Source: Candidatus Omnitrophota bacterium (lineage in GTDB: Bacteria; Omnitrophota; Gorgyraeia; Gygaellales; Profunditerraquicolaceae). Taken from it: DNA of 59,531 bases. Made by a program: the position numbers and the translations under genes. Positions 5,740-48,144 of the stretch are shown piece by piece (the stretch's first letter is position 1; every line of letters begins with the position of its first letter). Under the pieces are notes generated by a model. It was not told the origin of the DNA and ran no database searches. It saw nothing but the letters and a program-made list of their open reading frames with translations. The DNA is taken from positions 1 to 59,531 of the forward strand of contig JAPLLX010000005.1 in the NCBI GenBank assembly GCA_026387335.1, read 5' to 3'.

Positions 5740-5773
5740 GGCTCTTCCTCCTAGCTTGTATTATACTATAAAT

Positions 5774-10495: not shown

Positions 10496-10497
10496 AA

Positions 10498-10707: not shown

Positions 10708-10722
10708 ACTCCGACCTCCTTA

Positions 10723-11406: not shown

Positions 11407-11546
11407 TTTTAACCTCGCATTTTCTTATTATTAACAACGCGTTGCTTCTATAATGTTATGGTTTGCGATAATTACAGCTTAATTCGCTTATTTGTAATTA
11501 TAGCACATTTTTTATCCATTACAATCCAGAAATCTTGTCGCGACCT

Positions 11547-11855: not shown

Positions 11856-11867
11856 ATTTTCCCTGCC

Positions 11868-13017: not shown

Positions 13018-13105
13018 CCCCCGAACGACGCTTTTTACCTTAATTTTGCGCCTTTTTTATGCTTAAAACGGCGACCTTACGACGCTTTTTATGTATAATG
13101 CGTCG

Positions 13106-14261: not shown

Positions 14262-14353
14262 TTGCCCATAGTATAAACTATGGATAATAAAATGTCAAGT
14301 AAATATTTGGCTTAATTGGGTTGCGGAAAGAACAGTTAATTTTGTGGCAATAT

Positions 14354-14782: not shown

Positions 14783-14800
14783 AACGCGCTCCTTTTATGT

Positions 14801-15628: not shown

Positions 15629-15680
15629 CTAATCGCCTGCCCCTAAAAACAAAAGGGGCAAGCATTTTTAATTCTCCCGC

Positions 15681-15762
15681 CCAACTTGCAAGTAAAAGCG
15701 AAAGACCGCTCGCCCCGAAGCGCTATGCGCTTGGGACACAGTCTTTTCCTCTTGCAAGTTGG
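15681..15762. repeat. 82-bp imperfect palindrome in the divergent intergenic region
   Basis: Perfect 12-bp outer arms CCAACTTGCAAG (15681-15692) and CTTGCAAGTTGG (15751-15762). Further partial inner complementarity: GAAAGAC/GTCTTTTC and CCGAAGCGC/GCGCTTGGG. Confidence 0.7.
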
Positions 15763-15985
15763 TTTATAAATCAGGAAAATCTATGTTCCTATATAAAATT
15801 TATTATTTATGCTATATTGAAAACCCTCCTTCTTAATTTTACTCTTCATTTAATTGCTTTTCGGTTAAGATACCCCATTAAATCTTTTTTCTCAAATCTT
15901 CGCCTCCTATACGCCTCCTATGCAGTGTTGTCTTTGATTATACTTTGCTATATAATGAAAGTCAAATAAATCAAGGAGGCTAACT

Positions 15986-17647: not shown

Positions 17648-17681
17648 CAGTCTCCTGCTCTACCAACTGAGCTAAGGGGGA
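17606..17681 (-). tRNA. tRNA-Asn (anticodon GTT), CCA encoded
   Basis: Hand-folded cloverleaf: acceptor TCCCCCT/AGGGGGA, D arm GCTC..GAGC, anticodon loop CTGTTAA, T arm CGAGG-TTCGAGT-CCTCG, discriminator G followed by CCA. Confidence 0.9.
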
Positions 17682-32767: not shown

Positions 32768-33182
32768 CCAGAATAACCTCGGCTAACCAACCGTAATCAT
32801 TTTGCTTAATTTTAAGTTCATGAAAAGTGGCGGCTTTAATCTCGGTATTTACCTTATAATTAGCTATGTCGCTTCCTACTACGAGCGCCTCAAGAGAATT
32901 TCCGGCTAATTTATTAATTTTAATACCGTGGAATATAAGGCCTTTAGCCGAAGATAAAGATAACAATTCGTTGAGCCAGTTAATAAATAACTCCTCCAAA
33001 TTATCCGCTTTTTGTTTGATAATTATGCTGGTGTGAATTTTGTTCCTAGTGAATTGCTTATGCGTGGAAATTGCAAATACGGCGAGTCCGGCGTTCCTGA
33101 ATAAATCTTTTAAGTCTTTTCCTTTTACCCGGATGCCGATATCCGCGGTATGCTCAAAAACTTCGTAAGGTTTGTCTTTCAC
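32760..33182 (-). CDS. Archease (RtcB activator)
   Basis: N-terminal YEVFEHTADIGIRVKG, a C-terminal KAATFHELKI, and a 140-aa length. Overlaps the rtcB start by 8 nt. Confidence 0.85.
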   Translation of the reverse strand: MKDKPYEVFEHTADIGIRVKGKDLKDLFRNAGLAVFAISTHKQFTRNKIHTSIIIKQKADNLEELFINWLNELLSLSSAKGLIFHGIKINKLAGNSLEALVVGSDIANYKVNTEIKAATFHELKIKQNDYGWLAEVILDV

Positions 33183-33245
33183 GCAGTTTTTAGTGTGCGA
33201 TGTGAACTGTTAACTGCTGGGAAGAAATATTGGTTTTAAATTTAA

Positions 33246-33318
33246 TGGGCCATGCAGGAGTCGAACCTGCGGCCTTGACATTAAGAGTGTCCTGCTCCGC
33301 CAATTGAGCTAATGGCCC
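33246..33318 (-). tRNA. tRNA-Lys (anticodon CTT), no encoded CCA
   Basis: Acceptor GGGCCAT/ATGGCCC, D arm GCTC..GAGC, anticodon loop CTCTTAA, T arm GCAGG-TTCGACT-CCTGC, discriminator A. Confidence 0.9.
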
Positions 33319-33733
33319 ATTACTAATAGTTACTCCTTCAATCCAACCAAGTATCTTATATAAAAGATTCTTATCGCAGACTTCAACTTTTATTGTCCCA
33401 TTATACAGGATATTTTTACGATAGCCAGTACCTTCTTTTTTAACATAGCTCTTGCCAAATCGCGAAACGGGCAGGCCTATTACATTCGACCAAAACTCTT
33501 TGCAGCCTGCCCCTATAATTTCCTTCCTTCAATAGTGTCTGCAGCCTATCCTTCTGTATCTCTGTTAACTCAATATCTTTACACCAGTCGCTTACTGTGC
33601 TTTTTGCAATTTTAAACGGCGCTATCTGCCTTAGTTCTTTATAACTCAAGCTCTGTTTTCTTAAATCTCTGACTAATTCTTTCTTCTCCCAGTTCTTCAT
33701 AGCTTGGGATCTCCACGCCTGCCTAATGAACAA
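33319..33733 (-). pseudogene. HTH-domain gene that appears frameshifted, with the downstream frame reading into tRNA-Lys
   Basis: The track ORF 33440-33733 encodes an HTH (SYKELRQIAPFKIAKSTVSDWCKD). A second frame continues RKEIIGAGCKEFWSNVIGLPVSRFGKSYVKKEGTGYRKNILYNGTIKVEVCDKNLLYKILGWIEG and has no stop before entering the tRNA. Confidence 0.3.
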
Positions 33734-33878
33734 ACAGATATGCTTTAAGCTAATAGCCTGAATTACTACTCACTTTTGAATTTGAGATATTTTAACTTAA
33801 AATGGGGTGCTTTGCAAGGCGGAATTTATTTATCTTTAGCTCAATTTGGGGTAAAAAATATACCCGTCACTTTTATTA

Positions 33879-34622
33879 CTATTTCTTTCTTGCCTGAATG
33901 ATTAAATGCCTGCCAAAAAGTAGCTCATTTGACAATAAGATTCTGTTTATCCTCCGGTAATCTACGCCGCCTTTTTTCATTGCCCGTCTTTCCTTCTGCC
34001 AGGACTGAAACTTAAGTAACGGTAATAATACAAAACTGAGAAATTTCAGCGATGGCTTCATCAAATCCGTATAAACACTTTCCGCAGAAAGCCCATTCTT
34101 AAATAAAAGATACTCTAATTCTTGATACCGCCAAACAACAATGTGCATATTTTGTAACCCGCTCGGGAATATTTTGCAGTAATCTAAAATTGGCTCGCGA
34201 AAAAAATCAAAGCCACCCTCGAATAAAAACCTAATCCGTGAACCCAGATTTAAAATATTTGGCGTAGATATAATTAAGGCGCCTCCCGGCTTTAATAGTC
34301 TGCTAATCTGCCCAATAACAAAATCTGGATTATATAAATGCTCTATAACTTCCAAAAATAGAATGTAATCAAAGCTGTTTTCTGGAAATGGCAGGGATCT
34401 TTCCAGATTACTTGCCTCAAATTTTATTAGATTACGGTATTTAAACCTCTCTATATCCATATCAGAAGCAACCACCTCAAACCCCGAATCTTTTAACCTT
34501 TTCGCGCAATTACCATCTCCACAGCCTAGATCCAACACCTTGCCTTTTGGAAGATTAGTAAATAACGCGGTAACCGCCTCAAGAAGATAGTTTTGTTTAT
34601 TTTCCCCCATATTCCCTTCCAT
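33879..34622 (-). CDS. Class I SAM-dependent methyltransferase (small-molecule/Methyltransf_11-like)
   Basis: Motif I VLDLGCGDG, an acidic motif II (VVASDMD), and motif-III-like LKPGGALIIST. No DPPY/NPPY-type DNA-methylase motif seen. Confidence 0.75.
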   Translation of the reverse strand: MEGNMGENKQNYLLEAVTALFTNLPKGKVLDLGCGDGNCAKRLKDSGFEVVASDMDIERFKYRNLIKFEASNLERSLPFPENSFDYILFLEVIEHLYNPDFVIGQISRLLKPGGALIISTPNILNLGSRIRFLFEGGFDFFREPILDYCKIFPSGLQNMHIVVWRYQELEYLLFKNGLSAESVYTDLMKPSLKFLSFVLLPLLKFQSWQKERRAMKKGGVDYRRINRILLSNELLFGRHLIIQARKK

Positions 34623-34695
34623 GTAACTGTGGTTGATTATACACCATCATATATGGGGGTGTCAAATATTAAAATATCGTGTAAGATTATAAAGT

Positions 34696-34911
34696 ATGAA
34701 TACTTTGGCTGGAATACAGTTGGGTAAAAGAATTAAAGAGTGGCGTAGGAAACGTGGGATTACGCAGGAACAACTAGCTGAGCTTATAGATACGAGCTAC
34801 AAATATATTCAAAGAATAGAAGGAAAAAATCCTCCAGATATACGATTAACTACTATCATAAGACTTGCCAAAGCGTTGAAGGTAAAGCCTGCCGAATTGT
34901 TGAAATTTTAA
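34696..34911 (+). CDS. XRE-family helix-turn-helix transcriptional regulator
   Basis: 71 aa, with LGKRIKEWRRKRGITQEQLAELIDTSYKYIQRIEG, the canonical Cro/C1-type HTH. Confidence 0.85.
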   Translation: MNTLAGIQLGKRIKEWRRKRGITQEQLAELIDTSYKYIQRIEGKNPPDIRLTTIIRLAKALKVKPAELLKF

Positions 34912-34948
34912 CTTAAGTCTTCTAATTTGTTCTTATGCCGATACTATT

Positions 34949-37900
34949 CTAACTTTCGTATTGAGGCAAGATTGGAGAAATGGGAATAGACTGAGCATTA
35001 CTACGACTCTCTTTATAATTCGTCAGCACATCACAGATACTACTTAGCTTGTTTTTATCACCTTCTATAAATTTAAGCAAAACTTTTTCCTCTAAATTCT
35101 CAATATCATTCATAGTACATATATTATTACTTAGGAGACGTAAATAATCGCCTCTTGTGAGCTTTTTGCCTAATCTCATTGCAATTTCGAGAATTTTTCC
35201 TGATACTCCTAATTCAAGACGAACTAAAAATCGAGACACTCTTTGATTCAAATCACTGCCAGGATATAAAATTTCTACAACCCTTGCAACTACGGGCAAA
35301 ATATCACAAGTTCTAGAAACGACGCTTCTGATTGGTCCTGCAGCACCGTCAAATTTTCCACCAAATTGCGTCAAAATATCCTCCATATCTATAAGGGGCT
35401 TATCCGTAATCCATAAAAGACAAGCCACAGCTTTTTTCGCTCTTAATGTTGACTGGCTTTCTTCTTTAATTGAATACCTTAATGAAGAGAGAACGCATTC
35501 TGGAACACCTTGATTTCGGATTTCACTCATCCAAGTTTGTGGTTCTTTTTGAGTACTCTTTTTATTAATTGGAAAATGTATATCATTAAGCTCAACAGAA
35601 ATTTGAGTAACGGCAATCAAAGTAGGATCGTTGATACTCTCTGGGTCAACGCTCTTAAATGTCCTAACGAAACGAATAATACTTTCTACCTCTACACCAG
35701 CTTCGCCTGACAATCTGCCTAATTGAGTAAGATGATATAATCCATTCTGATCAATTTTAATAAGATCATTTGCAACCAACCCATCCAAAGCACTTTTAAG
35801 AATTGCTTCATCCCAAACCCATCGTTGATCTATTTGTTTCCGTTGAAATACACCAAAGCTCTGTTCTAAGAATTCTATTATTTCTTGCGCTGGAAGACCT
35901 TGGCCTGATCGTTCTGCAGCTGTAAGAACACGCACTATAAGTGAACGTGGATCAGTATTTGAAGCTAGAAACTTTGAATTTAAATCTTCTGGTGAACCCA
36001 ATACATAATTTCTCCATACTTGATATTCCTCATTCCCATCTTGAGCTATCACATAAGAAGTACCTTTTTTAGTAAATCCAAGCCTACCTGCCCTACCAAT
36101 GATATTTTTGTATTCAGCAATAGAATAGGGCTTATTACCTGGATGCATCAAACCAGCGATAACCACTGCTTCGGCAGGTGTATTAACGCCCATCGCTAAG
36201 GTCGTAGTGGCGGAAATCACTTTCAATGCAGTAGGCGAAGCTCTAAATTGTTCTTCAATAAGCAACCTCTCTTCTGTATCCAAATCAGAAATATGGAAAG
36301 CTGTGCCTCCTGCTAGTGCATCTCTTAATCGTTGAGAAGAAAGAGAGGGATCTCCGTTAGGCAGCATATCTAATACTGATTGAGCCGGAGCTAGACCCAG
36401 CGTTTCAGCAAGATATAGGGCACAACCTCTAGCTTCTCCTCTTGTTTCCCTAAAAACAATCACACTCTTACCTTCGCTAACTAATTTCCTAACTAATGGA
36501 ATTATTAAATCTTGGCTTGATCCTTTACGGAATTCAGGGACTATGTGTCTTGTTATCACCGCTTCTTTACCATCTTCAGCAGATATAAATCTGAAACTAC
36601 CGTCTAACCTAAGCACTCCTTCATCTAGGGGGATTGGTCTTTCTGTTCTCTTAAGTAATCTAGCATTAAGCCAGCGTTCAAGACCATTTGTATCACCAAT
36701 AACAGCTGATAGGGCAATAAGCTGTGGTTCAATACCTTGTCTACGACGCATCTTTAAAAGCGTAAGAATGAACTCGAGATTTACTCCTCTAGATTCGTCT
36801 GCTATCATTTGAACTTCATCTATAACCACCGTTCCTACTTGTTCAAGAATATGTGGATTACCGAGAACTAAAGCTGAGAATTTTTCATATGTCATTAGAC
36901 AGATGTCATACTGTCCACGCATCAAAGGCAAGATATCGTCGCTTGTACTATCGCCAGTAGCTCTAATAGTTTTTATTCCAAAATCTTGGTATGCTAATGT
37001 AAAATGTCTGAATTTATCATTTACCAGAGCTTTTAAAGGAAAAAGAAATATTGCTCTCTTTCGCTCTAAAACATTCTTTAAGGCAGCAAGTTCACCTATC
37101 ATTGTTTTTCCTGAAGAAGTCGGCGCTGAAACAACTATATGTTCTCCATCAAGCAGATTAAACTCATTTATGGCATCTACCTGTAATTGATTAAGCGAAG
37201 GTATTAAACCAGCCCATACTTTTAACAACTCTTGTGGGAAACCGTAAACTGTCAAACTTTTAACATCAGTAGTAACTTTATGTTTTGTACGTTCGGGAAA
37301 AAGAGATTGATATAACGCCCCCGGTTTAAAAACTGGCCATGTTAAATCCCCATTGATAGTGCCGCGTAACGTTGGATGTTGCGGCTTCCCTAACTTTGAA
37401 GCATCGTCTATTACACGTTGCGTTACATATTCAAGAAGCCGATAAACTCCAATTTTTCCTGCTTTAGTAACTTCTTCAACGCCTTGTATTGCAGAAAGCA
37501 AGTGATATGTTAAGAGCCCGTGACCATATTTTTGATTTTCCCAAGCCTTCTCTGTTGCAAGAGACGCGGTAATAATCAACCTTCCTTCTCCCGATAACTG
37601 CTTGAGGAGCTCTTCTGTTGATCTTAGTTCTCTAGCGCTCATATCTACTTGAAGTGCCTTAGCACCCATACCACCAGAAAAACAACAATCCAAAATAAAA
37701 ATTAAACGGTTCGTACGAATACGAAATAACCATTCCGATAAAACATCTAACGGAATACAGGTTTCAGTTAAATTGCTCCTATCGGCATCATATGTAACTA
37801 GTTCGTGGGTTTCTGTGCCATGTCCAGAAAATGCAATCACAACAACATCATCATCGCTACATCCAGATAATTTATTAAATTCTAGTTCAATAGCTGCACG

Positions 37901-38056
37901 ACTAGCATCTTTATCTATAAGCAGTTTCGTGTTGTTTCCCAGGTTATCAGTAAAGAGACCATACAGAGCCTTGGCATCACACTTAGCACAATTTAGCCAA
38001 TTAATTGTAGGTGAAGCATATCTGTCTATACCGATAAAAAGTCCGTAGAATTTCAT
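34949..38056 (-). CDS. Fusion protein: N-terminal caspase-like peptidase C14 domain plus Ski2/Hel308-like SF2 (DExH) helicase with a winged-helix/ratchet-like C-terminal region
   Basis: Caspase part (about aa 1-240): GLFIGIDRY, AFSGHG (His79), ILDCCFSGG (Cys125), YGHGLLTYHLLSAIQG. Helicase part: Q-motif-like LNQLQVDAI, Walker A SAPTSSGKT (about aa 311-318), DEVQ (413-416), SAV, TTTLAMGVNTPA, GRAGR. The C-terminal roughly 330 aa are helical. Confidence 0.85.
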   Translation of the reverse strand: MKFYGLFIGIDRYASPTINWLNCAKCDAKALYGLFTDNLGNNTKLLIDKDASRAAIELEFNKLSGCSDDDVVVIAFSGHGTETHELVTYDADRSNLTETCIPLDVLSEWLFRIRTNRLIFILDCCFSGGMGAKALQVDMSARELRSTEELLKQLSGEGRLIITASLATEKAWENQKYGHGLLTYHLLSAIQGVEEVTKAGKIGVYRLLEYVTQRVIDDASKLGKPQHPTLRGTINGDLTWPVFKPGALYQSLFPERTKHKVTTDVKSLTVYGFPQELLKVWAGLIPSLNQLQVDAINEFNLLDGEHIVVSAPTSSGKTMIGELAALKNVLERKRAIFLFPLKALVNDKFRHFTLAYQDFGIKTIRATGDSTSDDILPLMRGQYDICLMTYEKFSALVLGNPHILEQVGTVVIDEVQMIADESRGVNLEFILTLLKMRRRQGIEPQLIALSAVIGDTNGLERWLNARLLKRTERPIPLDEGVLRLDGSFRFISAEDGKEAVITRHIVPEFRKGSSQDLIIPLVRKLVSEGKSVIVFRETRGEARGCALYLAETLGLAPAQSVLDMLPNGDPSLSSQRLRDALAGGTAFHISDLDTEERLLIEEQFRASPTALKVISATTTLAMGVNTPAEAVVIAGLMHPGNKPYSIAEYKNIIGRAGRLGFTKKGTSYVIAQDGNEEYQVWRNYVLGSPEDLNSKFLASNTDPRSLIVRVLTAAERSGQGLPAQEIIEFLEQSFGVFQRKQIDQRWVWDEAILKSALDGLVANDLIKIDQNGLYHLTQLGRLSGEAGVEVESIIRFVRTFKSVDPESINDPTLIAVTQISVELNDIHFPINKKSTQKEPQTWMSEIRNQGVPECVLSSLRYSIKEESQSTLRAKKAVACLLWITDKPLIDMEDILTQFGGKFDGAAGPIRSVVSRTCDILPVVARVVEILYPGSDLNQRVSRFLVRLELGVSGKILEIAMRLGKKLTRGDYLRLLSNNICTMNDIENLEEKVLLKFIEGDKNKLSSICDVLTNYKESRSNAQSIPISPILPQYES

Positions 38057-38134
38057 TTTTCTTAGTGTTTATGTATGAATTTTACCTCAGGTATCTGTCT
38101 GTAGCAAAGATTCCTCATAGTTCTCCTCAATCTT

Positions 38135-39016
38135 TTAAATAAATACGCCTTTATCATCAAAAGGTGTATAAACTCCCCCTGTAAAATTACCATAATTCAA
38201 ACCAAATTTAATTTCGATGCCTAAAAGAACATAGGCAATCGCTAGAGTGGTTCGGGGATCAAGTGTTATCCCATTTTTCTCAGTATGCGATGCTCCGCTA
38301 ACTTCTATTATCTCCACTTTGCTTTTATAAAAATCTGGATCTAACCCTTCTTTATTGTATTTTGCGCTTCTCATGACCGCCAAATCTATTGTTCCTGCAA
38401 AGCAATACAATTTCTTAACCCTATTTAGAAGTTTTTCTCTTGTTCCTATCTCATTTATATACTTGATTGGGAATTGGTCAGGATCTAAGTTTACACATTG
38501 CATCATATGATGCAGTTCACCTTTTTTGAGTTTAGGAAGAAGATCTGCTAACTCTCTACCTTCATGAGGAGTAGCAACAGTGATTAGACTATTAACTTTT
38601 AAAAGTGGGCTGACATCATCAATTACGGCTGCAACTGCGTCTAAACCACCCATGCTGTGTCCAACTAAATCAAAATCTTGACTTTCCTCTATTTTACTCA
38701 AAATTTTGTTTTTAAGAATGACCCCAAAATCGAGGAAACTCTTGCATCTTTTAGATTCATCATCGCTAAAAGTTACGTATTCCACTAAATCGCAATTCTT
38801 GAATATTCCTGAAAACCACTCTTTTATAGAAATACCGAATTTCTTATTACTAACTGTCCACCATGTATTATCCTCATCAGTCCAACCAGGAACAAAAAAA
38901 ACTGGCCTCTTAAGAGTTAATTTTTGCAGTGAGAATTGACTCAGCTTACTTAGTGCATTCTCTTTCTGTTTCTTCCTCTCCTCTATCATATCTTGGACTA
39001 CACCAGTAGTAGGCAT
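38135..39016 (-). CDS. Alpha/beta-hydrolase, lipase/esterase-like (PGAP1/DUF676-like)
   Basis: PVFFVPGW oxyanion-region pattern, nucleophile elbow GHSMGG (Ser121), and a downstream TVATPHEG motif. AAAGGAGGAATATT lies before the ATG. Confidence 0.7.
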   Translation of the reverse strand: MPTTGVVQDMIEERKKQKENALSKLSQFSLQKLTLKRPVFFVPGWTDEDNTWWTVSNKKFGISIKEWFSGIFKNCDLVEYVTFSDDESKRCKSFLDFGVILKNKILSKIEESQDFDLVGHSMGGLDAVAAVIDDVSPLLKVNSLITVATPHEGRELADLLPKLKKGELHHMMQCVNLDPDQFPIKYINEIGTREKLLNRVKKLYCFAGTIDLAVMRSAKYNKEGLDPDFYKSKVEIIEVSGASHTEKNGITLDPRTTLAIAYVLLGIEIKFGLNYGNFTGGVYTPFDDKGVFI

Positions 39017-39039
39017 AATATTCCTCCTTTTTTACATAC

Positions 39040-39071
39040 AAAAAACCCTCGCCTTTTGAGCGAAGGTTTTA
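39040..39071 (-). terminator. Rho-independent terminator after the 215-aa gene
   Basis: On the minus strand, stem ACCUUCGC/GCGAGGGU (with one G-U pair) is followed by UUUUUUG. A-run and T-run flank both sides, so it could act in both directions. Confidence 0.55.
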
Positions 39072-39144
39072 ATTATTTTAAAGTGGCGGATTTACCCCTT
39101 CAAACTGCACCACTTGTTAAATTTATCAAATTCATTCTAAAAAT

Positions 39145-39792
39145 TTACGTAAAAGTTGCTCCTTCGTCTCCTAAGCATACTTGATGACTCATATCCCATA
39201 ATAAATATCTAATAGCAAAATAATTATACGAGGATGGCCCCTCAATGACTAAGTTACCGATATTCTTTTTAAATAGATCTTTCGACCTATTATTCGCATC
39301 CCCTGTTGTATGGCCTTTTAATAAAGCAATTGGAATATGATTTGAGGGTTCTAAAAATAATTCTGCAGTTTTATCTTCAAGTGGTCTTCTTATATTTGTT
39401 GAGTTAGAAGCTACTATAAACTCTTCTTTATATCCTAGATAAGCAAGAGCACCTTGTGTTATGCAATTTTGTCCCAACTTCTTTGCAGAATTACAAGAAC
39501 GAGCATAAATAATCTTACCTTTTATGGCTTTGTTATCATCCTCCTTTAAAATAACTTCATTATCATGGCCATGAACAGAAATATCACTACCGTGCCCATT
39601 TAAGATAACTAACTTCGCACCCGTTTTTTCCAAAATCCCGATAACTCTGTTCCTATTCGCCTTTTCACGGTGGAGGTCTATAACTTTTACATTCTTCTTT
39701 TGTGCTATATCTATTATTTGCTCACTCCATTTAGAAAGATAATGAGTTGCTTCATCGTGTTCTGGTCTTGTAATGAGTAACACTCCTACCAT
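39145..39792 (-). CDS. Small protein with a caspase/CHAT-like His-Cys pattern (tentative)
   Basis: A beta-strand followed by GHG (LVILNGHGSD, His67), a second hydrophobic strand ending in Cys (KIIYARSCNS, Cys100), then GALAYLGY. This is the order seen in caspase-hemoglobinase-fold proteases. The call rests on pattern only. Confidence 0.4.
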   Translation of the reverse strand: MVGVLLITRPEHDEATHYLSKWSEQIIDIAQKKNVKVIDLHREKANRNRVIGILEKTGAKLVILNGHGSDISVHGHDNEVILKEDDNKAIKGKIIYARSCNSAKKLGQNCITQGALAYLGYKEEFIVASNSTNIRRPLEDKTAELFLEPSNHIPIALLKGHTTGDANNRSKDLFKKNIGNLVIEGPSSYNYFAIRYLLWDMSHQVCLGDEGATFT

Positions 39793-39797
39793 ATAGC

Positions 39798-40049
39798 TTA
39801 ATTTTGGTTTAGCTGTTCTAGTAAAACACCTTCTTTTAAAGCTCTCAAGAAAGACAGCTCTATGTCAACAATTTTCTGACCGACTTCGTCTCCTTGTTTT
39901 ACGCATTCAATAAGCTGCTCTCTGGTAAATTCGCCTACTGAACCGATATGAATTCTTACATGAGAAGGAAGAACATCAAGTCGCTCAATAACAAGATCTT
40001 TTAGCTCTTCTGAGATTTCTTTTTTTTGTTGCCCTGCTTCTTCTGTCAT
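39798..40049 (-). CDS. Small acidic hypothetical protein (83 aa)
   Basis: ORF abutting the upstream 69-aa ORF (the stop of one is adjacent to the start of the other) and ending 5 nt before the 215-aa gene starts. Confidence 0.5.
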   Translation of the reverse strand: MTEEAGQQKKEISEELKDLVIERLDVLPSHVRIHIGSVGEFTREQLIECVKQGDEVGQKIVDIELSFLRALKEGVLLEQLNQN

Positions 40050-40259
40050 TTAAATTATGCCTAATCCTTTTAATTTTTCCAGAATTTGTTCGCACCTTGC
40101 TGTATTGTTTTTTACCTCAAAATAAACAACTTCCCATGTAATAGGTTGTTTTTTCCCTTCTTCTTCTAAAACAAGTACAATTTCTTTACGCGTGTTTAGC
40201 GGAAGATTCGCATAAGCTTTTAGAAACTGCTCTCTATTATTATTTTCTGGATTACACAT
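40050..40259 (-). CDS. Small hypothetical protein (69 aa), weakly similar to the 83-aa neighbour
   Basis: First gene of the minus-strand cluster. Shares a loose L-P ... R..I ... T.E ... VK pattern with the next ORF. Confidence 0.45.
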   Translation of the reverse strand: MCNPENNNREQFLKAYANLPLNTRKEIVLVLEEEGKKQPITWEVVYFEVKNNTARCEQILEKLKGLGII

Positions 40260-40696
40260 AAATTAATAGAAATAAAACAAAGGTAGGTACCTATATCCTA
40301 AAAATCTGCCTATATACATAAAGGTAAGATTAAATTTCCTCAGTGATATCCGTAATTAACCCAATTGAATTACCCTTAGGTTAATTATACTAGATAATAA
40401 GGCAATGTCAAATAAATTGTGAGCTAGGAGTTAATCAGTTAAGAATGCGTTATTTTAATAAAACAGAACTATTCCCTAAATATTGCCCTTTTCTAGTACT
40501 AGAATTATTTTAGTAGCGAAACTTGAGCTACCTCTCTTTGTATCTCTGAACCCTGTAAATGTCCAAAAAGTGTCCATTTGATATTAAAAATCATTAAAAT
40601 TACTTAAAATACTTTAAAACAAAAAATTCTTTAACTTATTGAAGGAGTTCATAGTTACAATAAAATCAACGGCTTACAGGAATTATTCCGGACGGT

Positions 40697-40734
40697 TTAA
40701 GAGTGTCCTGCTCTGCCAATTGAGCTAATGGCCC
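40697..40734 (-). repeat. Orphan 5' half of tRNA-Lys(CTT) (acceptor 5' strand through the anticodon loop)
   Basis: 37/38 identity to 33281-33318. Similarity stops exactly after the anticodon loop. There is no 3' half next to it. Confidence 0.85.
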
Positions 40735-40754
40735 GCATTTAAATTTGATTTTCT

Positions 40755-40783
40755 ATTTTAACCCAAAATGGCTAGTTTGGCAA
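40755..40783 (-). promoter_or_regulatory. Sigma-70-like promoter in front of the orphan tRNA-Lys half
   Basis: Minus strand: TTGCCA (40783-40778), a 17-nt spacer, TAAAAT (40760-40755), then 20 nt to the first tRNA nucleotide. Confidence 0.5.
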
Positions 40784-40815
40784 GAAACGTTTTAAAGAAC
40801 CGGCCTTTAATGGCC

Positions 40816-42204
40816 TTATTCAAGCGTAATCACCCGAAAAGCTGTGCAACCTGAAGGCAAATAAGCCTTAGACGACTCAAACGCGAATAAGATACTCTCG
40901 GGGTTGCCTAACACGCTAAGTGGTATTTTAAGAATTACCGACTCGGGATTAAATTCCAGAAACGCTCCTTCAGGATGAATATACTTATCTGTAGTGCCGT
41001 TAAATATGCTCAGTTTATTATATCTGGCAAACACAAGGATATTCGGCATCTCGGCAAAAAGAGTATCTTTTCTACACCCAAAAATACCGAAAAAGTAAGA
41101 TAATCTCTGTTTATACTCTTTTGGTTTTTTGATTTTAACCCAGAGGACATTATCTACAATTGCGTAACCGATCCATTGCATGTCCGAAGTAAAAACAACC
41201 TCTTTACTCTGCTTGCCGGATGACCCGGAAGTATATTGCTTCTTTAAATTAATATAAGGAAATTCTCCGAACAGCTCATTCTGGCGCACAAAGGCCGTAA
41301 GGTAAAAACCACTAATGCGGAACTGGGTATCATAGGCACGCATGGCTTTATACTTCTTGTTTATTTCTTCTTCTGTCAGTTTAAGTTGGCGCCAATTAAC
41401 CAACCCCAAGGTATCGCCAAAGAATTTTGAGGGAGGTTCTATCTCAAGAGATGGATGATAATGCCGGGGAAGCGGCCAGCCAGGAACATGGATGAGGTAC
41501 GGATAAATCTTTGGCGCGGGCATCCTTTGGCCTAAGTCAGACAAAGCAGTCATCAGGTATAAATAATTCGCCCAATGGTCGCCGTTAACATCAGAAGGAG
41601 AGGTAACAAATACCTTAGTCGGCTTATAACCAAAAATGATTTGTTTTAAGTCTGTTATAATATTATCCGCGGTAAATTCTTTTTGATAACCCACGCTTTC
41701 TTCATAAGGGACAGTTGAATGCCCGCTAAAAGAGCTCCTGTACGGCCTTTCGTGATCCCAATTAGCGATAAACATCTGGTCTGTCCCGTGGTCAGGATAA
41801 CCTAGAAAGATAAGGTCGCTCTCTTGTATCCCCAGTATCTTCATTGCATTTATTGCTTCATGCACGCGCTGATGCCCCAGCGTGATAAAATCCTTCTTCC
41901 TTAAGGAAAGCAGTCTAAACGGAAAAAATAATTTGTTATAGAATACTATGGAAAATATATTATTATCCCCGCAGGTCAAATACGCCACTTTTACCTGCGC
42001 ACCGGCCTTAAGGGCGCGCTGCATCATGCCTCCGCAGCCTAAGTCTTCATCATCAGGATGAGGAGCAAGGACCAGAACGCGGTCTTCTTTTGAAAATGGT
42101 TCAAGCTCGGGAAATTCTTGGGGTTGGGCAGCGGCTATTGGCTGCGTAACGAAAAAACATACCGTTAAAACGAACAATGCCCGGTATAATAATTTTAAGA
42201 ACAT
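40816..42204 (-). CDS. PIG-L/LmbE-family deacetylase with a C-terminal extension, secreted or membrane-anchored
   Basis: Signal/anchor sequence, then VLVLAPHPDDEDLGCGG, which is the PIG-L zinc-binding motif. Confidence 0.7.
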   Translation of the reverse strand: MFLKLLYRALFVLTVCFFVTQPIAAAQPQEFPELEPFSKEDRVLVLAPHPDDEDLGCGGMMQRALKAGAQVKVAYLTCGDNNIFSIVFYNKLFFPFRLLSLRKKDFITLGHQRVHEAINAMKILGIQESDLIFLGYPDHGTDQMFIANWDHERPYRSSFSGHSTVPYEESVGYQKEFTADNIITDLKQIIFGYKPTKVFVTSPSDVNGDHWANYLYLMTALSDLGQRMPAPKIYPYLIHVPGWPLPRHYHPSLEIEPPSKFFGDTLGLVNWRQLKLTEEEINKKYKAMRAYDTQFRISGFYLTAFVRQNELFGEFPYINLKKQYTSGSSGKQSKEVVFTSDMQWIGYAIVDNVLWVKIKKPKEYKQRLSYFFGIFGCRKDTLFAEMPNILVFARYNKLSIFNGTTDKYIHPEGAFLEFNPESVILKIPLSVLGNPESILFAFESSKAYLPSGCTAFRVITLE

Positions 42205-42253
42205 ATTATTCTATCCCCTTCTCCTATCCTTATTTCTTAAAAAGACCAATTGG

Positions 42254-42403
42254 CTATGACCATAAATACCATAGGGTCTTTATTTCCGTTGTAGTTGGCC
42301 AGGCCAATCTGCAGGCCATTACTGGTTTTGTCCCCTTGGCAAAGGCCAAATTTGTTGCACAACAAAAAAAGATCAGTAATAAACCTAAAGTTTTTTTATC
42401 CAT
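42254..42403 (-). CDS. Possible small secreted peptide (49 aa)
   Basis: Below the track's size cutoff. ATG at 42401-42403 follows GGAAAGGAAG. Translation MDKKTLGLLLIFFCCATNLAFAKGTKPVMACRLAWPTTTEIKTLWYLWS has a signal-peptide-like start. Confidence 0.25.
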   Translation of the reverse strand: MDKKTLGLLLIFFCCATNLAFAKGTKPVMACRLAWPTTTEIKTLWYLWS

Positions 42404-42430
42404 CCGGCTTCCTTTCCGAATACCTCTTTA

Positions 42431-43255
42431 TTACTTTTCCCACAATTCCGGGTTTTTCTCAAGCATCTTTAGAAAAGTATCTACCACTTGCGGAGAATGC
42501 TGCGTGCCGCGGGATTTCTTTAATTCCGAGATTATTGTCTCTCTATCCAGCGCTTCGCGGTAGGCCCTCCTGGAATTCATAGCGTCAAAGGCGTCGGCAA
42601 CGGATATAATCATAGCCTCAAAACTGATCTCCTTGGCCTTTAAGCCCTTTGGATAACCTTTCCCGTCATAGCGCTCGTGATGCTGCACAATTACTTCTTT
42701 CTCCGTAGCTAAAAATTTTAACGGCTCTAAAATAGCGGCCGCGTTTTCCGGATGCTTCTTAATCATCTCAAATTCTTCATCCGTTAATTTTTCTTTCTTA
42801 TTCAGTATGGCGTCACTTAAGCCGATTTTACCTATATCGTGCAATATGCCTGCCCGATTGACGATATTCTTCTTATCGTCGGTTAAACTTAATTCTTTGG
42901 CGATAGCCAGGGCGATCTTGGTCACTCTCTCCGAATGGCCGCGGGTGTAGAGGTCTTTTGCTTCCTCGGTCTTGATTAACGCGCCGATGGTATCAATTTC
43001 AGCGCTCTTTAGATGTTCCTGGGTAAGGCGCAGGTCTTTATTCATACTGACCAGCTTATGAAAATCAAACATCTCCTGGAGCCATAAGTAAAAGAGGATG
43101 GCCAGGATAATAAACAGGAAAAACTTATCGGGTATGATCTCGCTGGAGGGAAAATATTGCAGCAATAACAGGCGCAACATGGTGAGGCAGGAAAGCAGGA
43201 TTACTACAGTTATTTTAAAACCGTGGCTGGCGCTGCGGTATTTCTCTTTGCTCAT
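42431..43255 (-). CDS. Membrane-anchored HD-GYP-type phosphodiesterase domain protein
   Basis: Two N-terminal TM helices, HD motifs (GHSERV, LHDIGK) and HHERYDGKGYP. Confidence 0.8.
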   Translation of the reverse strand: MSKEKYRSASHGFKITVVILLSCLTMLRLLLLQYFPSSEIIPDKFFLFIILAILFYLWLQEMFDFHKLVSMNKDLRLTQEHLKSAEIDTIGALIKTEEAKDLYTRGHSERVTKIALAIAKELSLTDDKKNIVNRAGILHDIGKIGLSDAILNKKEKLTDEEFEMIKKHPENAAAILEPLKFLATEKEVIVQHHERYDGKGYPKGLKAKEISFEAMIISVADAFDAMNSRRAYREALDRETIISELKKSRGTQHSPQVVDTFLKMLEKNPELWEK

Positions 43256-43278
43256 TTTAGAATAGCCCTAATGGATGT

Positions 43279-44289
43279 TTACTTCTTTTTGGATTTACCG
43301 TCTTTAACCGTAAAGTATGATCTATCGCGGCTGAGGTTATTGATGAAAAACTCTGAAAGAATAAAAATCTGATTTTGAGGCATTATTCTGACATAATAAG
43401 CTTTCTTATCTTTTAGAAAAGAGCCTACTTCTATTTGGATAGCTTCGGGCTTATTATCTTTAGGGAAGCTAAGCTTTAATACTTTTAGAGGGCGCTCAAG
43501 GCCGTAACTTTTAAGGTTCGGGTCCAGGATATCTTGCGCGTAAAAACCCGCCACGTTCTGCAGATATTCATTTACCCTGGCCAAATCCGGTAGAGACTTT
43601 TTATTGGCCGGGTCAAAATTCCAGACGTTGGCTACAGACTTAGTTAAAGCTAACGCGCGCTTCTTACCGACCATTAATTCTATTCTGTTTACGGAATTAA
43701 CATCAAAGGGAAAAACCCGGTAATCGGCAAAATAGTTTCCGTCGGATTTTGCCATTTTATCAAAAAGTCCGATGGCGGGTAGAATATTCCGGTTGACCAG
43801 TATGATCTTATCCGCATCAAAGACTCGGATAAAGTTCTGGTTGTCATTCGGGCTCTTAAAACTGACTACCAGATGCGCCAAAGGCTTATTATCTGCGCCG
43901 GACAAGATCAGATGAGCGGCTTGATTATCCTGAATCTGGAAATCTGCGAATACACTTTTGGAATCACCTCTTAACTCTCCTTTTAAGTCTTTTAAGCTAT
44001 TGAAAAGGTTATCCACCGCTTCATTTCTGGCTTTTAAACCGAGTTTACTCTCTAAAACCCATTGCCCGTCATTTTGCCTAGAGAGGATTACCTTATTTTG
44101 CGCATCATCACCTTTGTAAATTATAATTTTAGACGCGAAAATATTCATACTGCTGTTGACTAAAGCAATTTCCGGTTCTTCCATCTGCCCTACAACGTTA
44201 TGTTTCTTCTGAAAGGAATTTTTGATTACGACCAGAACCAGCAGAACGAAAACAATACCGGTCAATATAAGAAGTTTTCTAAGCTTCAT
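43279..44289 (-). CDS. DUF4340-like protein associated with the GldG-type ABC transporter
   Basis: N-terminal anchor and no catalytic motif. Sits downstream of a GldG-like gene, which is the usual context for DUF4340. Confidence 0.5.
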   Translation of the reverse strand: MKLRKLLILTGIVFVLLVLVVIKNSFQKKHNVVGQMEEPEIALVNSSMNIFASKIIIYKGDDAQNKVILSRQNDGQWVLESKLGLKARNEAVDNLFNSLKDLKGELRGDSKSVFADFQIQDNQAAHLILSGADNKPLAHLVVSFKSPNDNQNFIRVFDADKIILVNRNILPAIGLFDKMAKSDGNYFADYRVFPFDVNSVNRIELMVGKKRALALTKSVANVWNFDPANKKSLPDLARVNEYLQNVAGFYAQDILDPNLKSYGLERPLKVLKLSFPKDNKPEAIQIEVGSFLKDKKAYYVRIMPQNQIFILSEFFINNLSRDRSYFTVKDGKSKKK

Positions 44290-46690
44290 TATTGCCTCTC
44301 GTCGATAAATAAGCTTGCTTCTCTTTCCTGCGCAGCAGGAGCCTGATGTAGGCGTAGACTGCCCAAAGAAGGGGAATACTTACTAAGGCGATAAACCTAT
44401 ACCAAGCTATCTGAGAATCTGTCAACTTTTTGATATTACGGCTTAAAATAGACTTAGAGCGTATTTGGATAAGGTCATCCCCTAAAGCAAAGCTGTCTAC
44501 AATATTGGCGAATAAGCTTAAATTTCCCGGGCTGTTAACGATCAACTGGTCGCTAAACATTTTAGCGCAGCCGATAACGACAAGTTTACCCGGTTGGGGA
44601 TTATTCAAGGCCTCAGTTTTATCTTCTCCGGCCGGCTCTATAGCCTTGTTGAACTGGCCCTGCAGAATCACCCCTAAGGGGAACCTTCCGGCAGAACCTG
44701 TTTTAGGATATACTAGGGACGAACCTTTTAAAGGACCGCCTTCAAAAGGCATCTGCCAGCTCTTAGGGCTGGAGGTGAATAAAAGTGTTTTCTTAAAGTC
44801 AGCCTGCTTGATAACCGGGTCAGAGAGGTCTAAAGACGACCCCCAGAGGTAAAATAAAGCGCTTAGCCTGTTCATTACCGCGGCTTTATTATCAAATAAC
44901 TGCTGCCGCACGAATATCTGATTAGGTAATTTAACCGGTATAGCCAGGGCAAATGGGCCTACATTCTGGTCGCTAGAGACGCTTATGACCTGATTATCCT
45001 CGTCCATCAGCATCTTATCGTTTATACTCACCCCCCATTTCTGGATAAGTCTATTGATATCCAGGTTTAATTTTATAGGCGTGGCATCCAGGCCTTGCGT
45101 TGGGATCATCTGGAATGAATAATCAAAACCCTGCGCGGCAATCAAGGCCGAACCCCCCTGATATAAAAATTTATTTATTTCGTAAAGCTGCCTGTCGTTT
45201 AAGGCCCCGGGGTTAATAACTAAAAGCGTAACAGTCCCTTCCGGAATAGCGCTCTCTTTAGTCAAAGCAGTACGCTCAAGGTTATAGCCGTTATTTACAA
45301 TTAATGAGGATAATGATTGATATTCATCCCTGCCCTGCGCTGATAAAGGAGAAAATAGGGCGATCTTCGGCCTTTTCTCCAAGGTCAATTTTACAATCCT
45401 GGAAAGAAGCATATATTCTAGATCCGGAATACTCTGCGGAAGCACGCGCGGCAGGATCTCTTCGTTTTTATCCAGGTAATTTATGCTGATGGCTGAATAG
45501 ACCAGCCTGACGCCAAGAGCATCCTTATCTATGCTTTCCACTTGAAAAGGAACAATACCTTTTGCCTGAAGAGATTTTTCCAGCGAATTAGCGGTAGCCG
45601 GCGCGCCCGGAACATTCTGCTGCTGGTTTGCTTCGATAAGCTTGGCCGCCTCTATATAAACAACTTTAAAATTTAATTTGTTTTTAGAAGCGATGCGTAA
45701 TTCATCCAGCTTGCCGGTGATCACCTGCTCCAGGGTTTTAATGGCTGTGGGCATCTTCTCAACCGGAGTAATGTAAACCTTTATCTGAACAGGCGCCTTA
45801 AGATTAGAAAGGATTCTTCTGGAAGCGTCGGAAACAGTATAAATTTTATTCTCGGTAATATCAAACCTTCCCAGCGATAGATCCTTGATCAGCCAGTTAA
45901 ACAAAATCGCTCCCACTAAACACACAGCCACAGCCGACCCAAAAACAAACTTTGCCCGCGGCCTTAACCTGCCCTCAAAAGAGAGACCGTTAAGCAGAAG
46001 GAAAATAAAACTCATCACTATAAAATATAACAGGTCTTTAATATCGATTATGCCCCGGTTAAAACTCGCCCCATGGCCTGAGGCGCCGATATAATTCTTC
46101 ATGAAGCTGCCTAAACCGGGAATCCAGCCGTCAAAAAAAGTAGCCAGAAAATCCATTCCTAATAACAGAATAAAAAAACAGGATAAAGTAGTCAGCACAA
46201 AGGCGATAATCTGTTCCTTGGTCAGGCCGGAAATGAATATGCCGATGGACATAAATAAAGCGCCCAGCATCAAAGCTCCGGTATAAGAAGCAATAATCCT
46301 GCCGGCGTCGGGTGAGCCGCAAATGAATAAAACTAACGGGACGCTGAAAGTGCTGGCTAGCGAGATAATATAGAAGACTAGGGCCGCTAAGAATTTCCCT
46401 AAAACCAGTTCCGCCGGCTGCATCGGGAAAGTCAACAATAGTTCAAAGGTGTTTTCCTTCCGGTCTTCCGCCCACAGGCGCATAGTAATGACCGGGATAA
46501 AAAGCAATAAGACATACGGCAGCGCCCAAAAAAACGGATCCATATCCGCGCGGCCGACCAAAAAGAACTGGGTCATAAATAAACCGTTATTAATCGCTAT
46601 AAAAGCGATCAAATAGACATAGGCGACGGCAGAGTTGAAATAACCTCCGAGTTCGCGTTTTAAGACTGTAACGATATTTTTTATATTCAT
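44279..46690 (-). CDS. ABC-2 permease fused to a GldG-like auxiliary domain
   Basis: N-terminal roughly 240 aa with 6 TM helices (ABC-2 type), a large periplasmic region, and a C-terminal TM anchor, as in GldF-GldG fusions. Confidence 0.65.
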   Translation of the reverse strand: MNIKNIVTVLKRELGGYFNSAVAYVYLIAFIAINNGLFMTQFFLVGRADMDPFFWALPYVLLLFIPVITMRLWAEDRKENTFELLLTFPMQPAELVLGKFLAALVFYIISLASTFSVPLVLFICGSPDAGRIIASYTGALMLGALFMSIGIFISGLTKEQIIAFVLTTLSCFFILLLGMDFLATFFDGWIPGLGSFMKNYIGASGHGASFNRGIIDIKDLLYFIVMSFIFLLLNGLSFEGRLRPRAKFVFGSAVAVCLVGAILFNWLIKDLSLGRFDITENKIYTVSDASRRILSNLKAPVQIKVYITPVEKMPTAIKTLEQVITGKLDELRIASKNKLNFKVVYIEAAKLIEANQQQNVPGAPATANSLEKSLQAKGIVPFQVESIDKDALGVRLVYSAISINYLDKNEEILPRVLPQSIPDLEYMLLSRIVKLTLEKRPKIALFSPLSAQGRDEYQSLSSLIVNNGYNLERTALTKESAIPEGTVTLLVINPGALNDRQLYEINKFLYQGGSALIAAQGFDYSFQMIPTQGLDATPIKLNLDINRLIQKWGVSINDKMLMDEDNQVISVSSDQNVGPFALAIPVKLPNQIFVRQQLFDNKAAVMNRLSALFYLWGSSLDLSDPVIKQADFKKTLLFTSSPKSWQMPFEGGPLKGSSLVYPKTGSAGRFPLGVILQGQFNKAIEPAGEDKTEALNNPQPGKLVVIGCAKMFSDQLIVNSPGNLSLFANIVDSFALGDDLIQIRSKSILSRNIKKLTDSQIAWYRFIALVSIPLLWAVYAYIRLLLRRKEKQAYLSTRGNNEA

Positions 46691-47625
46691 TTTTCTGTTC
46701 TCTTAAAAAGGCCCAAGAAAACCTCCTCTAAGGAAGGCTCCTTAACCGACACTTCAGCCAAAACCCAGCCCTTCTCTTTAGCCAGGGTATTAACTGACTT
46801 TAGCGCTTCATTCACGGAAAGGATTGAGCATAAAAATCTGGGCGCGGAATTTAGATTACCTATATAGTTAACTCCCTTTATAGTGGAAAGCGCGTTAAGC
46901 GCTTTTTCCACATCTTCTTTCTGGGCCTCTAATGAGACGAATAAAGACGGCACACCTGTATTTTCTTTCTTGAGCTCCGGAATCAATCCGTTGGCGATGA
47001 TTTTACCGCGGTCTATGATTACCAGACGCTCGGCTACACTTGAGGCTTCCTGTAAGATATGCGTTGAAAATATGATCGTCTTCTCGGCGGCTAAATCCTT
47101 GATCAGCTTACGCATCAGAATAATCTGCATCGGGTCAAGCCCGCTGGTCGGCTCATCCAGAATAACCACTTTAGGGTCATGGATCAATGCCTGGGCTAGG
47201 CCTACTCTTTGCCTGAATCCTAAAGAAAGCTCGTTGACCATATGCTTCCAGACATCCCCTATTTTTGTGGCTTCCACTACCCAGTCAATTCTTTCTTTCA
47301 ATTTTCTACCGCCTAAACCGCGGCTGGTGCCCACAAAATCAATGAATTCATCCACTCGCATATCCATATAAAGCGGAGGAGTCTCAGGAAGATAACCAAT
47401 AATCTTTCTTACGCTTAAGGGATCCTGGGTTATATCAATTCCGTTAATCCTGGCGGTTCCTTTGGTGGGGTAAAAAAAGGTGGTGAGGACGCGCATCAGG
47501 GTGGTCTTGCCTGCGCCGTTAGGCCCGAGCAAACCCACGATCTCCCGCTCTTTGGCCTCAAAAGATACAGCGTCAAGAGCAAGAACCGGACCGTAACTCA
47601 TTGAGAGGTTAGTCACTTCGATCAT
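46687..47625 (-). CDS. ABC transporter ATP-binding protein (GldA-like)
   Basis: Walker A GPNGAGKTT, signature LSLGFRQR, Walker B VILDEPTSGLD, and an H-loop STHIL. Confidence 0.9.
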   Translation of the reverse strand: MIEVTNLSMSYGPVLALDAVSFEAKEREIVGLLGPNGAGKTTLMRVLTTFFYPTKGTARINGIDITQDPLSVRKIIGYLPETPPLYMDMRVDEFIDFVGTSRGLGGRKLKERIDWVVEATKIGDVWKHMVNELSLGFRQRVGLAQALIHDPKVVILDEPTSGLDPMQIILMRKLIKDLAAEKTIIFSTHILQEASSVAERLVIIDRGKIIANGLIPELKKENTGVPSLFVSLEAQKEDVEKALNALSTIKGVNYIGNLNSAPRFLCSILSVNEALKSVNTLAKEKGWVLAEVSVKEPSLEEVFLGLFKRTEK

Positions 47626-47692
47626 ATTTTAATTACCTTGCAATAAGCAAATCTCTTTAATTTGTATTAGTATATAATTTTTAAAAATTTTG

Positions 47693-48112
47693 TCAAGCCC
47701 CTTTGGCAGCATCGGGAGGGAATTTGTTGCGTTTTAAGAAATCCCTTATAGCAGCCTTGTCTACTTCTAGTATCTTGTCAAAACGTATGCCTATCCTATG
47801 AGATATATCCTTAATGGCGGTATTAGAGACTGTTTCTCCGATTAAGTCCATACGCCTTATGCGTTCTTCGCCGGTTAAGTGCAAATCTATAATATTAAAT
47901 TTAATATGCAGCTGTGTGCCGACAGGAATATTGTGCTTGGTGATTATCGCCACGCCTAAGTCGCTTAAATTCACCATTAACGCGTCTTTTTCATCAGCTA
48001 AACCGAAGCTAACGCTTAAGGCATAAGGCTTTTCTACATTATAAATAAGGGTAAACGCGGCATCAATACGTTCAGACTTCCTGCGTTCCGGCCTTTCTCT
48101 CCCGTCTTCCAC
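47693..48112 (-). CDS. PilZ-domain protein
   Basis: RRKSER (RxxxR) near the N-terminus and NLSDLG (DxSxxG-like) about 30 aa later. Confidence 0.65.
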   Translation of the reverse strand: MEDGRERPERRKSERIDAAFTLIYNVEKPYALSVSFGLADEKDALMVNLSDLGVAIITKHNIPVGTQLHIKFNIIDLHLTGEERIRRMDLIGETVSNTAIKDISHRIGIRFDKILEVDKAAIRDFLKRNKFPPDAAKGA

Positions 48113-48144
48113 AGTCCCTCCATATTTAAAGGAGACTAAAATTA

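Follow-up and report, generated by a model that had tools for sequence, protein, structure and literature searches.

A probable decayed member of a reverse-polarity integrase island family in the tRNA-Lys(CTT) gene of an Omnitrophota bacterium

Introduction

For the islands and prophages that tyrosine integrases insert in tRNA genes, Williams is said to have set out in 2002 a classification that includes an anticodon-loop sublocation. Among tRNA integrations in general, those of the 5'-distal kind are considerably rarer than the 3'-distal ones (PMC6563490), which bears out a remark in the initial annotation of the DNA studied here that most tRNA islands duplicate the 3' end of their target. 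The stretch in question, hereafter the window, comprises the 59,531 nucleotides at positions 1 to 59,531 of contig JAPLLX010000005.1 from a Candidatus Omnitrophota bacterium (assembly GCA_026387335.1). We describe a foreign block in its tRNA-Lys(CTT) gene that is probably a decayed member of a family of tyrosine-integrase islands, inserted with reversed polarity at the anticodon loop of this gene.

Results

A foreign block in the tRNA-Lys gene

The tRNA-Lys(CTT) gene of the window is accompanied by a displaced copy of its 5' half. The two copies of this 38-nt direct repeat (33281-33318 and 40697-40734) are identical at 37/38 positions (BLAST E ~1e-14 within the window) and span tRNA-Lys positions 1-38, which begin with G1 and take in the anticodon loop (CTCTTAA) up to its final base; beyond them similarity is lost on either side. 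The repeat is thus as the initial annotation had described it, running from the acceptor 5' strand through the anticodon loop and ending there. It is not dispersed, since these two copies are the only ones in the whole 1.38-Mb genome. GC content is 0.335-0.40 between the copies and 0.41-0.49 outside. The parts of the site are as follows.

33182-33244, minus strand: foreign 62-nt spacer between tRNA-Lys and archease, in place of a spacer of ~18 nt at the empty site described below
33245-33319, minus strand: intact tRNA-Lys(CTT) gene (ARAGORN), foreign over its full length
40697-40734, minus strand: displaced native tRNA-Lys(CTT) 5' half (positions 1-38), core of attL, 38/38 to the genus consensus
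40735-40800, minus strand: native upstream flank with a promoter-like site, TTGCCA-17-TAAAAT (40783-40755), cut off from the functional gene

An exact-match scan for sequence running from the distal flank through the 5' half into the start of the 3' half returned one metagenome contig, Ga0247842_10000011 (L139; the empty-site contig hereafter). It aligns with the window at 46145-42427 (98.4% identity), 42321-40697 (97.8%) and 33181-29254 (95.3%), its genes follow the order PIG-L, complete tRNA-Lys, archease, and no island sequence is found in it at the PIG-L/archease site. The uninterrupted site that had been predicted at the outset therefore exists, with flanks 95-98% identical to those of the window. 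In 12 relatives the order tRNA-Arg(TCG), tRNA-Lys(CTT), archease is conserved, and the gap between the two tRNA genes measures 62 nt to 8.3 kb, compared with 14.8 kb in the window; the island genes are absent from the gaps of all 12. The interior is thus not core synteny. A reading without any insertion, in which the interior would be core synteny or the 38-mer a dispersed repeat, is refuted by the empty site, the absence of the interior from relatives and the presence of only two copies in the genome, and we give it practically no weight. Positions 33182-40696 are a foreign, low-GC block of ~7.5 kb in the tRNA-Lys gene.

The gap between tRNA-Arg and tRNA-Lys (33320-48144 in the window) is an accretion hotspot in its own right. 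It is only 62-64 nt long in G019 and G020 and 120 nt to 8.3 kb in the other relatives, and its contents vary by genome, SPFH proteins and oxidoreductase genes being among them, together with an ABC/DUF4340 cluster in common with G001 and an HD gene in common with G007. Between the HD-domain gene and PIG-L the empty-site contig has ~1 kb (its positions 3720-4812), and the window only ~100 nt (42321-42427).

Native and foreign parts of the tRNA locus

Judged by these alignments, the distal half is the native copy, because it is continuous with native flank and matches the genus consensus at 38/38 positions, being identical to the tRNA-Lys of the empty-site contig and of six genomes of the same genus. 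The adjoining flank at 40735-40800 is contiguous with PIG-L and belongs to the segment that is 97.8% identical to positions 4813-6437 of the empty-site contig, and the 30-70 nt upstream of the displaced half show homology to the spacer that precedes tRNA-Lys in G019, G003, G005 and G020. The displaced half lying 7.4 kb from the gene is therefore native, as had been proposed.

The intact gene differs from the native one at a single position of the 5' half, a G instead of an A in the D-loop, and at four positions of the 3' half, one compensated T-stem pair among them. It is 73/74 identical to a tRNA on contig C91 of G160, a genome of another genus, and the 62-nt spacer is, by eye, similar to the spacer on the same contig. 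About 45 nt of native sequence, namely the 3' half and spacer, have been lost from the window. Since both the intact tRNA and its spacer differ from the empty site, the foreign block extends over 33182-40696. Two earlier statements have to be amended accordingly. The junction had been placed at the anticodon loop, which is where the distal copy ends, but the foreign block continues past the intact tRNA to ~33182; and the intact gene had been said to use an island-supplied 5' half, which is indeed foreign, but so are its 3' half and spacer. Polarity is reversed, in that the 5' part is duplicated and the native promoter-like site stays with the displaced fragment. The left junction is of the att type and the right boundary is not, so at least two events are needed.

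Sister islands and their integrases

The 38-mer was scanned for in 234 genomes of the same order and found in 138/234, several of which have more than one match. Twelve of the 234 (G000, G002, G098, G110, G156, G169, G206, G032, G039, G067, G115 and G160) contain a displaced half in which the tRNA sequence breaks off precisely at CTCTTAA and gives way to other DNA. A tyrosine integrase is present in 4/12, in three of them directly 5' of the restored tRNA. In G156 and G169 its open reading frame (ORF; 357-367 aa) stops 4-23 nt short of the intact tRNA, and on contig C91 of G160 the integrase C-terminus (KSLEMTLRYSHLSPDHK) lies directly 5' of an intact tRNA-Lys that is followed by archease. In G098 the same integrase gene precedes a second displaced half, which indicates two elements in tandem. 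The integrases of G156, G169 and G098 share 57-74% identity and have PF00589 and Int_N domains with the signature HxLRHT...LLGH...Y. The repeat is only 38-40 nt long in the integrase-bearing islands, and reaches 55-65 nt upstream of the tRNA in the integrase-less mini-islands of G110 and G206.

Elements accumulate in tandem at two of these loci. Two displaced halves lie 18.8 kb apart on contig C8 of G098 (L115), with the intact tRNA on another contig, and in G160 (L111/L121) a module with a helix-turn-helix (HTH) gene, described below, is followed by a displaced half and then by an integrase island. In several genomes there is also a hairpin upstream of tRNA-Lys, in which the initial 11 nt of the tRNA (GGGCCATTAGC) and their complement GCTAATGG enclose a short stem-loop. 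It occurs at ~1615-1680 and ~2806-2871 of L116 (G110), at 11903-11969 of L003 and in L127/L128 (G068); in G110 it is part of a ~100-nt direct repeat.

A conserved arm next to the displaced half

The sequence on the island side of the left junction is shared with other islands:

40540-40696, minus strand: distal arm of the integrative element, from an alignment with other islands (A2)

This alignment covers the 140-160 nt that follow the displaced half in the window and in G110, G206, G156, G032 and G039, with a weaker match to G169 and G098. The arms have a conserved block (ACCGnCCAG...CGTAAC...TTGAnnTTnTTGTAAC), a hairpin with a T-run and short iterated repeats. Within them the motif TGGACAC-N5-GGACA(C) is nearly invariant; the copy at 40560-40576 is the single occurrence of TGGACAC-N5-GGACA in the window. 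From its conservation we infer that the ~140-nt block may be the attL arm to which the integrase binds. An additional TGG(A/G)CAC lies within the end of int in G156 and G169. A proximal arm motif of this type was not found at the tRNA-proximal end of the window island.

The arm bears on two explanations that dispense with an integrase. Firstly, one-ended homing followed by illegitimate joining of random donor DNA was considered and rejected, as the sequence beside the displaced half is conserved in at least six islands, integrase-bearing ones included. Secondly, a circle or fragment carrying a tRNA-Lys 5' half might have been captured by RecA-dependent (Campbell-type) or homology-facilitated illegitimate recombination. 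Such a route would suit an island that has no integrase, 38 nt being near the minimum for RecA-dependent recombination, and also the mini-islands of G110 and G206 with their longer repeats. However, it does not account for an identical CTCTTAA breakpoint in 12 genomes, for the conserved arm that adjoins this breakpoint, or for the restriction of the repeat to 38-40 nt in integrase-bearing sister islands. We regard capture of this kind as very improbable.

Other arm variants were seen in runs X2, X3 and X7, which are freshwater metagenomes. Contigs there lead from the tRNA-Lys 5' half (position 6437 of the empty-site contig) into ACCGTCCAGGGCAATACCCATAAC... or ACCGGCCCGAAGCATTTTCGTAAC..., so that neighbouring organisms in these communities have related islands too.

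Cargo genes and the missing integrase

Between the arm and the tRNA-proximal end the block carries the following genes.

33879-40259, minus strand except for the XRE-type gene: cargo ORFs, made up of three small ones (69, 83 and 215 aa) and those given singly below
38135-39016, minus strand: PGAP1-like alpha/beta hydrolase
34949-38056, minus strand: caspase-DEAD helicase fusion of 1035 aa
34696-34911, plus strand: XRE-type HTH protein
33879-34622, minus strand: S-adenosylmethionine (SAM) methyltransferase

The fusion protein joins a caspase (C14) to a DEAD/Hel308-like helicase. Its homologues, 36-74% identical (most of them 47-74%), are found in Acidobacteriota, Elusimicrobiota, candidate-phyla-radiation (CPR) lineages, Bacteroidota, Actinomycetota and others, in no case with another gene of the island as a neighbour. 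The fusion is thus a stand-alone, horizontally mobile, defence-like gene.

No recombinase domain was detected in the eight ORFs between the repeats, and no cognate integrase was found elsewhere in the genome, where there are only two Xer-like proteins and one 189-aa tyrosine recombinase. The initial annotation was therefore right that the island contains no recombinase. The integrase expected of a tRNA island is missing from 33182-40696 and present in the sister islands of G156, G169, G098 and G160 (contig C91).

The 189-aa protein belongs to a second low-GC island of the window (10000-17681), beside tRNA-Asn(GTT). This island has a 553-aa large serine recombinase (15986-17647, plus strand), which in its last codons overlaps the tRNA gene, encoded on the opposite strand, at its 3' part. 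The tyrosine recombinase of 189 aa (13106-13675, 20 kb away from the tRNA-Lys island) consists of a catalytic domain only. Of six genomes of the genus, this one alone has the gene; a 197-aa ORF lies upstream of that gene with an 8-nt overlap, and the island also encodes a 291-aa HTH protein. Both recombinases were considered as enzymes acting in trans and rejected. The large serine recombinase would not yield a 38-nt repeat, and the tyrosine recombinase shares no more than 26-31% identity with the family integrases in their catalytic domain and is without their N-terminal domains.

An HTH pseudogene in place of the integrase

At the tRNA-proximal end, where the sister islands carry int, the window carries a different set of parts.

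33761-33847, minus strand: second, foreign copy of a tRNA-Lys-type promoter region, with a putative site TTGCAA-17-TAAAAT at 33817-33789
33701-33760, minus strand: leader, an old degenerate tRNA-Lys 5' half (AGGCTATTAGCT...GGAGATCCCAAGCT) that ends 0-3 nt before the ATG
33320-33700, minus strand: pseudogene of an HTH plus alpha/beta-domain family (97-aa HTH fragment) that has lost 281 nt internally and contains a frameshift

The second promoter region shares 82-84% identity with the sequence that precedes tRNA-Lys in G002 and G007, and 78% with that of G001. Its consensus promoter-like site, predicted from the sequence, lies upstream of leader, pseudogene and tRNA alike, and the second frame of the pseudogene reads into the tRNA. 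The leader was read from the sequence and compared with those of G160, G052, G042, G001 and G157. Apart from the 281-nt deletion, the whole module matches contig C140 of G160 at 97.3% over 222 nt and 88.6% over 210 nt. Since the adjacent core genes of the window are only 77% identical to those of G160, the module is recently foreign. In G160 the same module lies to the left of a displaced half backed by an integrase island, an arrangement which implies that HTH-gene elements and integrase elements meet at the tRNA-Lys site.

The frameshifted HTH gene had been put forward as the only candidate remnant of a recombinase. This did not hold, for it is a decayed copy of a separate tRNA-associated family. 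A relationship to the 291-aa HTH protein of the tRNA-Asn island was also considered and dropped, as the two have no similarity.

A tRNA-associated HTH gene family

Full-length homologues of the pseudogene product have 216-223 aa, and no Pfam family matches the whole protein. Named homologues come from Candidatus Omnitrophota metagenome-assembled genomes. The family occurs in 88/234 genomes of the order, with 0-4 copies each and stop codons in some. A positional census of 51 copies gave the following distribution.

At most 75 nt 5' of a same-strand tRNA, 41/51 copies: Val(TAC) 14, Lys(CTT) 9, Glu(CTC) 8, Pro(CGG) 7, Arg(TCT) 2, Leu(TAG) 1
Just 3' of tRNA-Arg(CCT): 6/51 copies
Without a nearby tRNA (contig ends, or an element insertion in G160): 4/51 copies

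Members thus nearly always adjoin or overlap a tRNA gene at its 5' end. Subfamilies follow tRNA identity, and many of the frames enter the tRNA and stop at a codon inside it; RNase P, by cutting at tRNA +1, would take off the stop codon of such frames. Lys-type copies have upstream of them a degenerate tRNA-Lys 5' half ending at the anticodon loop, and a Val-type copy in G010 is preceded by a tRNA-Val 5' fragment (26/27). A similar relic was suspected in the 9-nt GGGCGGTTG upstream of the tRNA-Val copy of G007, but these nucleotides are the last ones of the preceding gene. G003 and G007 carry the family gene beside tRNA-Val(TAC) and G000, G001, G002 and G008 lack it, the flanks being conserved.

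The family is very large, with 7,632 cluster representatives in a library-wide profile search. Three further members were sampled, one of which lies at a contig end, while the other two overlap tRNA-Lys and tRNA-Gly. Invariant residues of the family are Y, E, G, K, S, C, W, F, G and W. An AlphaFold model (pLDDT 86) consists of an HTH, a long helix and an alpha/beta domain; a Foldseek search with it gave no match at E<=0.001 in PDB or BFVD, the best TM-scores being 0.2-0.3. Profile searches of Pfam, NCBIfam, PHROGs and PDB recognised only the N-terminal HTH, which is transposase/resolvase-like. The end of one helix, with the invariant '..LYWAEG.K', resembles a LAGLIDADG motif, but a LAGLIDADG enzyme was rejected because neither family nor fold matches.

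We tentatively raise the possibility that the family is a new selfish element which would invade tRNA genes at the anticodon loop, bring a replacement tRNA 5' part, use the displaced tRNA promoter and 5' half as its leader, and end its frame inside the restored tRNA. Whether such a gene mobilised the island itself is a different matter. As a homing-endonuclease-like enzyme or a novel recombinase, its product would have cut tRNA-Lys at the anticodon loop, and repair from a donor allele would have copied the gene, a replacement tRNA and variable upstream DNA (the cargo), so that the native 5' half stayed behind; co-conversion in the course of such repair would explain the foreign 3' half and spacer. 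The position of 41/51 copies 5' of a tRNA, the agreement of subfamilies with tRNA identity, the displaced 5' halves of the Lys-type copies with the 27-nt tRNA-Val fragment in G010, and the presence/absence polymorphism of the gene within the genus all fit this scenario. However, the arm next to the displaced half is common to integrase islands that have no HTH gene, and so is something other than random DNA from a donor; the HTH protein gave no match to a nuclease or recombinase family or fold; and the duplication is also present in G002, G110, G206, G156 and G169, which lack the gene. We therefore think it unlikely that the HTH gene was the mobiliser.

Strain variation in metagenomes

Metagenome reads were seen only as assembled Logan contigs, which end where they reach the shared 38-mer. 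Runs from three studies contain the island. In X2, X3 and X7 the depth of the island core is about half the summed depth of the flanks, and contigs leave the window sequence at 33847 and re-enter it at 40559, with the loose ends AATAGTAAAATACAACTATCCC... and ...GGATGAGCCGTATAATTAG. This suggests a second strain in which the frame is unchanged, from the promoter-leader-pseudogene module at one end to the final 138 nt of the arm at the other, and the cargo differs, as if cargo had been replaced inside a fixed frame. The junction of the second strain was not found in Joint Genome Institute (JGI) metagenomes. The spacer of the empty allele is nearly absent from the runs.

The data are equally compatible with an import in which a related strain donated the finished block in one piece, the homologous recombination taking place in the flanking core genes on the PIG-L and archease sides. 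The right flank is a mosaic with respect to the empty-site contig (91-99% identity per 200 nt, compared with 98-100% on the left), the two strains in X2, X3 and X7 share the frame but apparently not the cargo, and the tRNA and spacer are foreign. However, such an import would only shift the origin of the block to another strain and leave its att-type left junction unexplained, and no donor with the same arrangement was found. We consider it a possible but rather doubtful origin.

Discussion

We conclude that block 33182-40696 is a decayed member of a reverse-polarity tyrosine-integrase island family at the anticodon loop of tRNA-Lys(CTT), and put the probability of this reading at about 0.75. 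The family integrase would insert the island in the anticodon loop with reversed polarity, so that the 5' part of the tRNA comes with the element, and the native 5' half moves to the far end together with its promoter. The left junction (40696/40697) would have been made by such an integrase. Later, the int-proximal part, the integrase and the native tRNA 3' half and spacer would have been replaced by a foreign promoter, a degenerate 5'-half leader, an HTH-family gene, a complete tRNA-Lys and its spacer, probably via recombination anchored in archease.

Several points weigh against this reconstruction. An integrase was never seen in this island or in the species. The function of the TGGACAC repeats as arm sites is proposed from their conservation. 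The right boundary is not an att junction, as it lacks the native 3' half and spacer and has a tRNA that is foreign throughout, which means that at least one further event must be assumed, and no unique reconstruction follows. Finally, neither a circle nor an empty-site joint was seen in X1, X2, X3 and X7, in assembled contigs that break at the 38-mer.

A lambda-dgal-like aberrant excision followed by integration in trans was also weighed. Its appeal lies in the precursor arrangement shown by G160 and in the repeats of G110 and G206 that extend upstream, but by itself it predicts a native 3' half, which the empty site contradicts, and it may have been a component of the process only.

The initial annotation had left open whether the island is fixed or mobilised in trans. 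Of the two, fixation is the likelier, and the island is most likely fixed in place, because it has neither an integrase nor a proximal arm and the genome contains no cognate integrase. Mobilisation in trans appears doubtful, because the proximal side seems to have been replaced by a foreign tRNA locus, leaving only the distal arm.

The locus illustrates how an island may decay to an integrase-less fixture while an essential tRNA gene is replaced by a foreign copy. It also documents, through an empty site and intact sister elements, a whole island family with the rare 5'-distal polarity in a poorly known order. Islands pile up in a single hotspot between tRNA-Arg and tRNA-Lys, where the gap grows from 62 nt to 14.8 kb, and deliver defence-type cargo. 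The most novel lead is the HTH family, the function of which is made experimentally approachable by its association with the 5' end of tRNA genes. The free-standing homing endonuclease genes found in tRNA gene clusters, such as SegB of phage T4, are likewise small, selfish-looking and patchily distributed genes next to tRNA genes. The HTH family differs from them in that no nuclease family or fold was detected, and in that the gene overlaps the tRNA 5' end and has a displaced tRNA 5' half upstream.

As for the island itself, the cis-mobilizable elements (CIMEs) of the ICESt1/ICESt3 family resemble it in having att-type ends and no recombination module, with integrase-bearing sisters at the same site and tandem accretion (as in G098 and G160). 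In contrast to CIMEs, the window island keeps the distal arm only, and its proximal side is a foreign tRNA locus.

With tyrosine-integrase islands at anticodon loops it has in common a crossover in a 7-nt loop with a symmetric stem, a tRNA-derived direct repeat, low GC, accessory or defence-type cargo and absence from close relatives and, in intact members of the family, an integrase beside the restored tRNA. It departs from the usual islands of this class in that the 5' part (positions 1-38) is duplicated instead of the 3' part, so that the element must supply a promoter too, and in that the window island lacks integrase and proximal arm. Known 5'-distal integrations share with it the duplicated 5' segment and the displaced native promoter, and differ in host (here an uncultivated bacterial order with small genomes), in target, which here is tRNA-Lys(CTT), and in the recurrent use of the site in 12/234 genomes. 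The kind of integration is thus already known, though rare, and the island family described here is a further, recurrent bacterial example of it.

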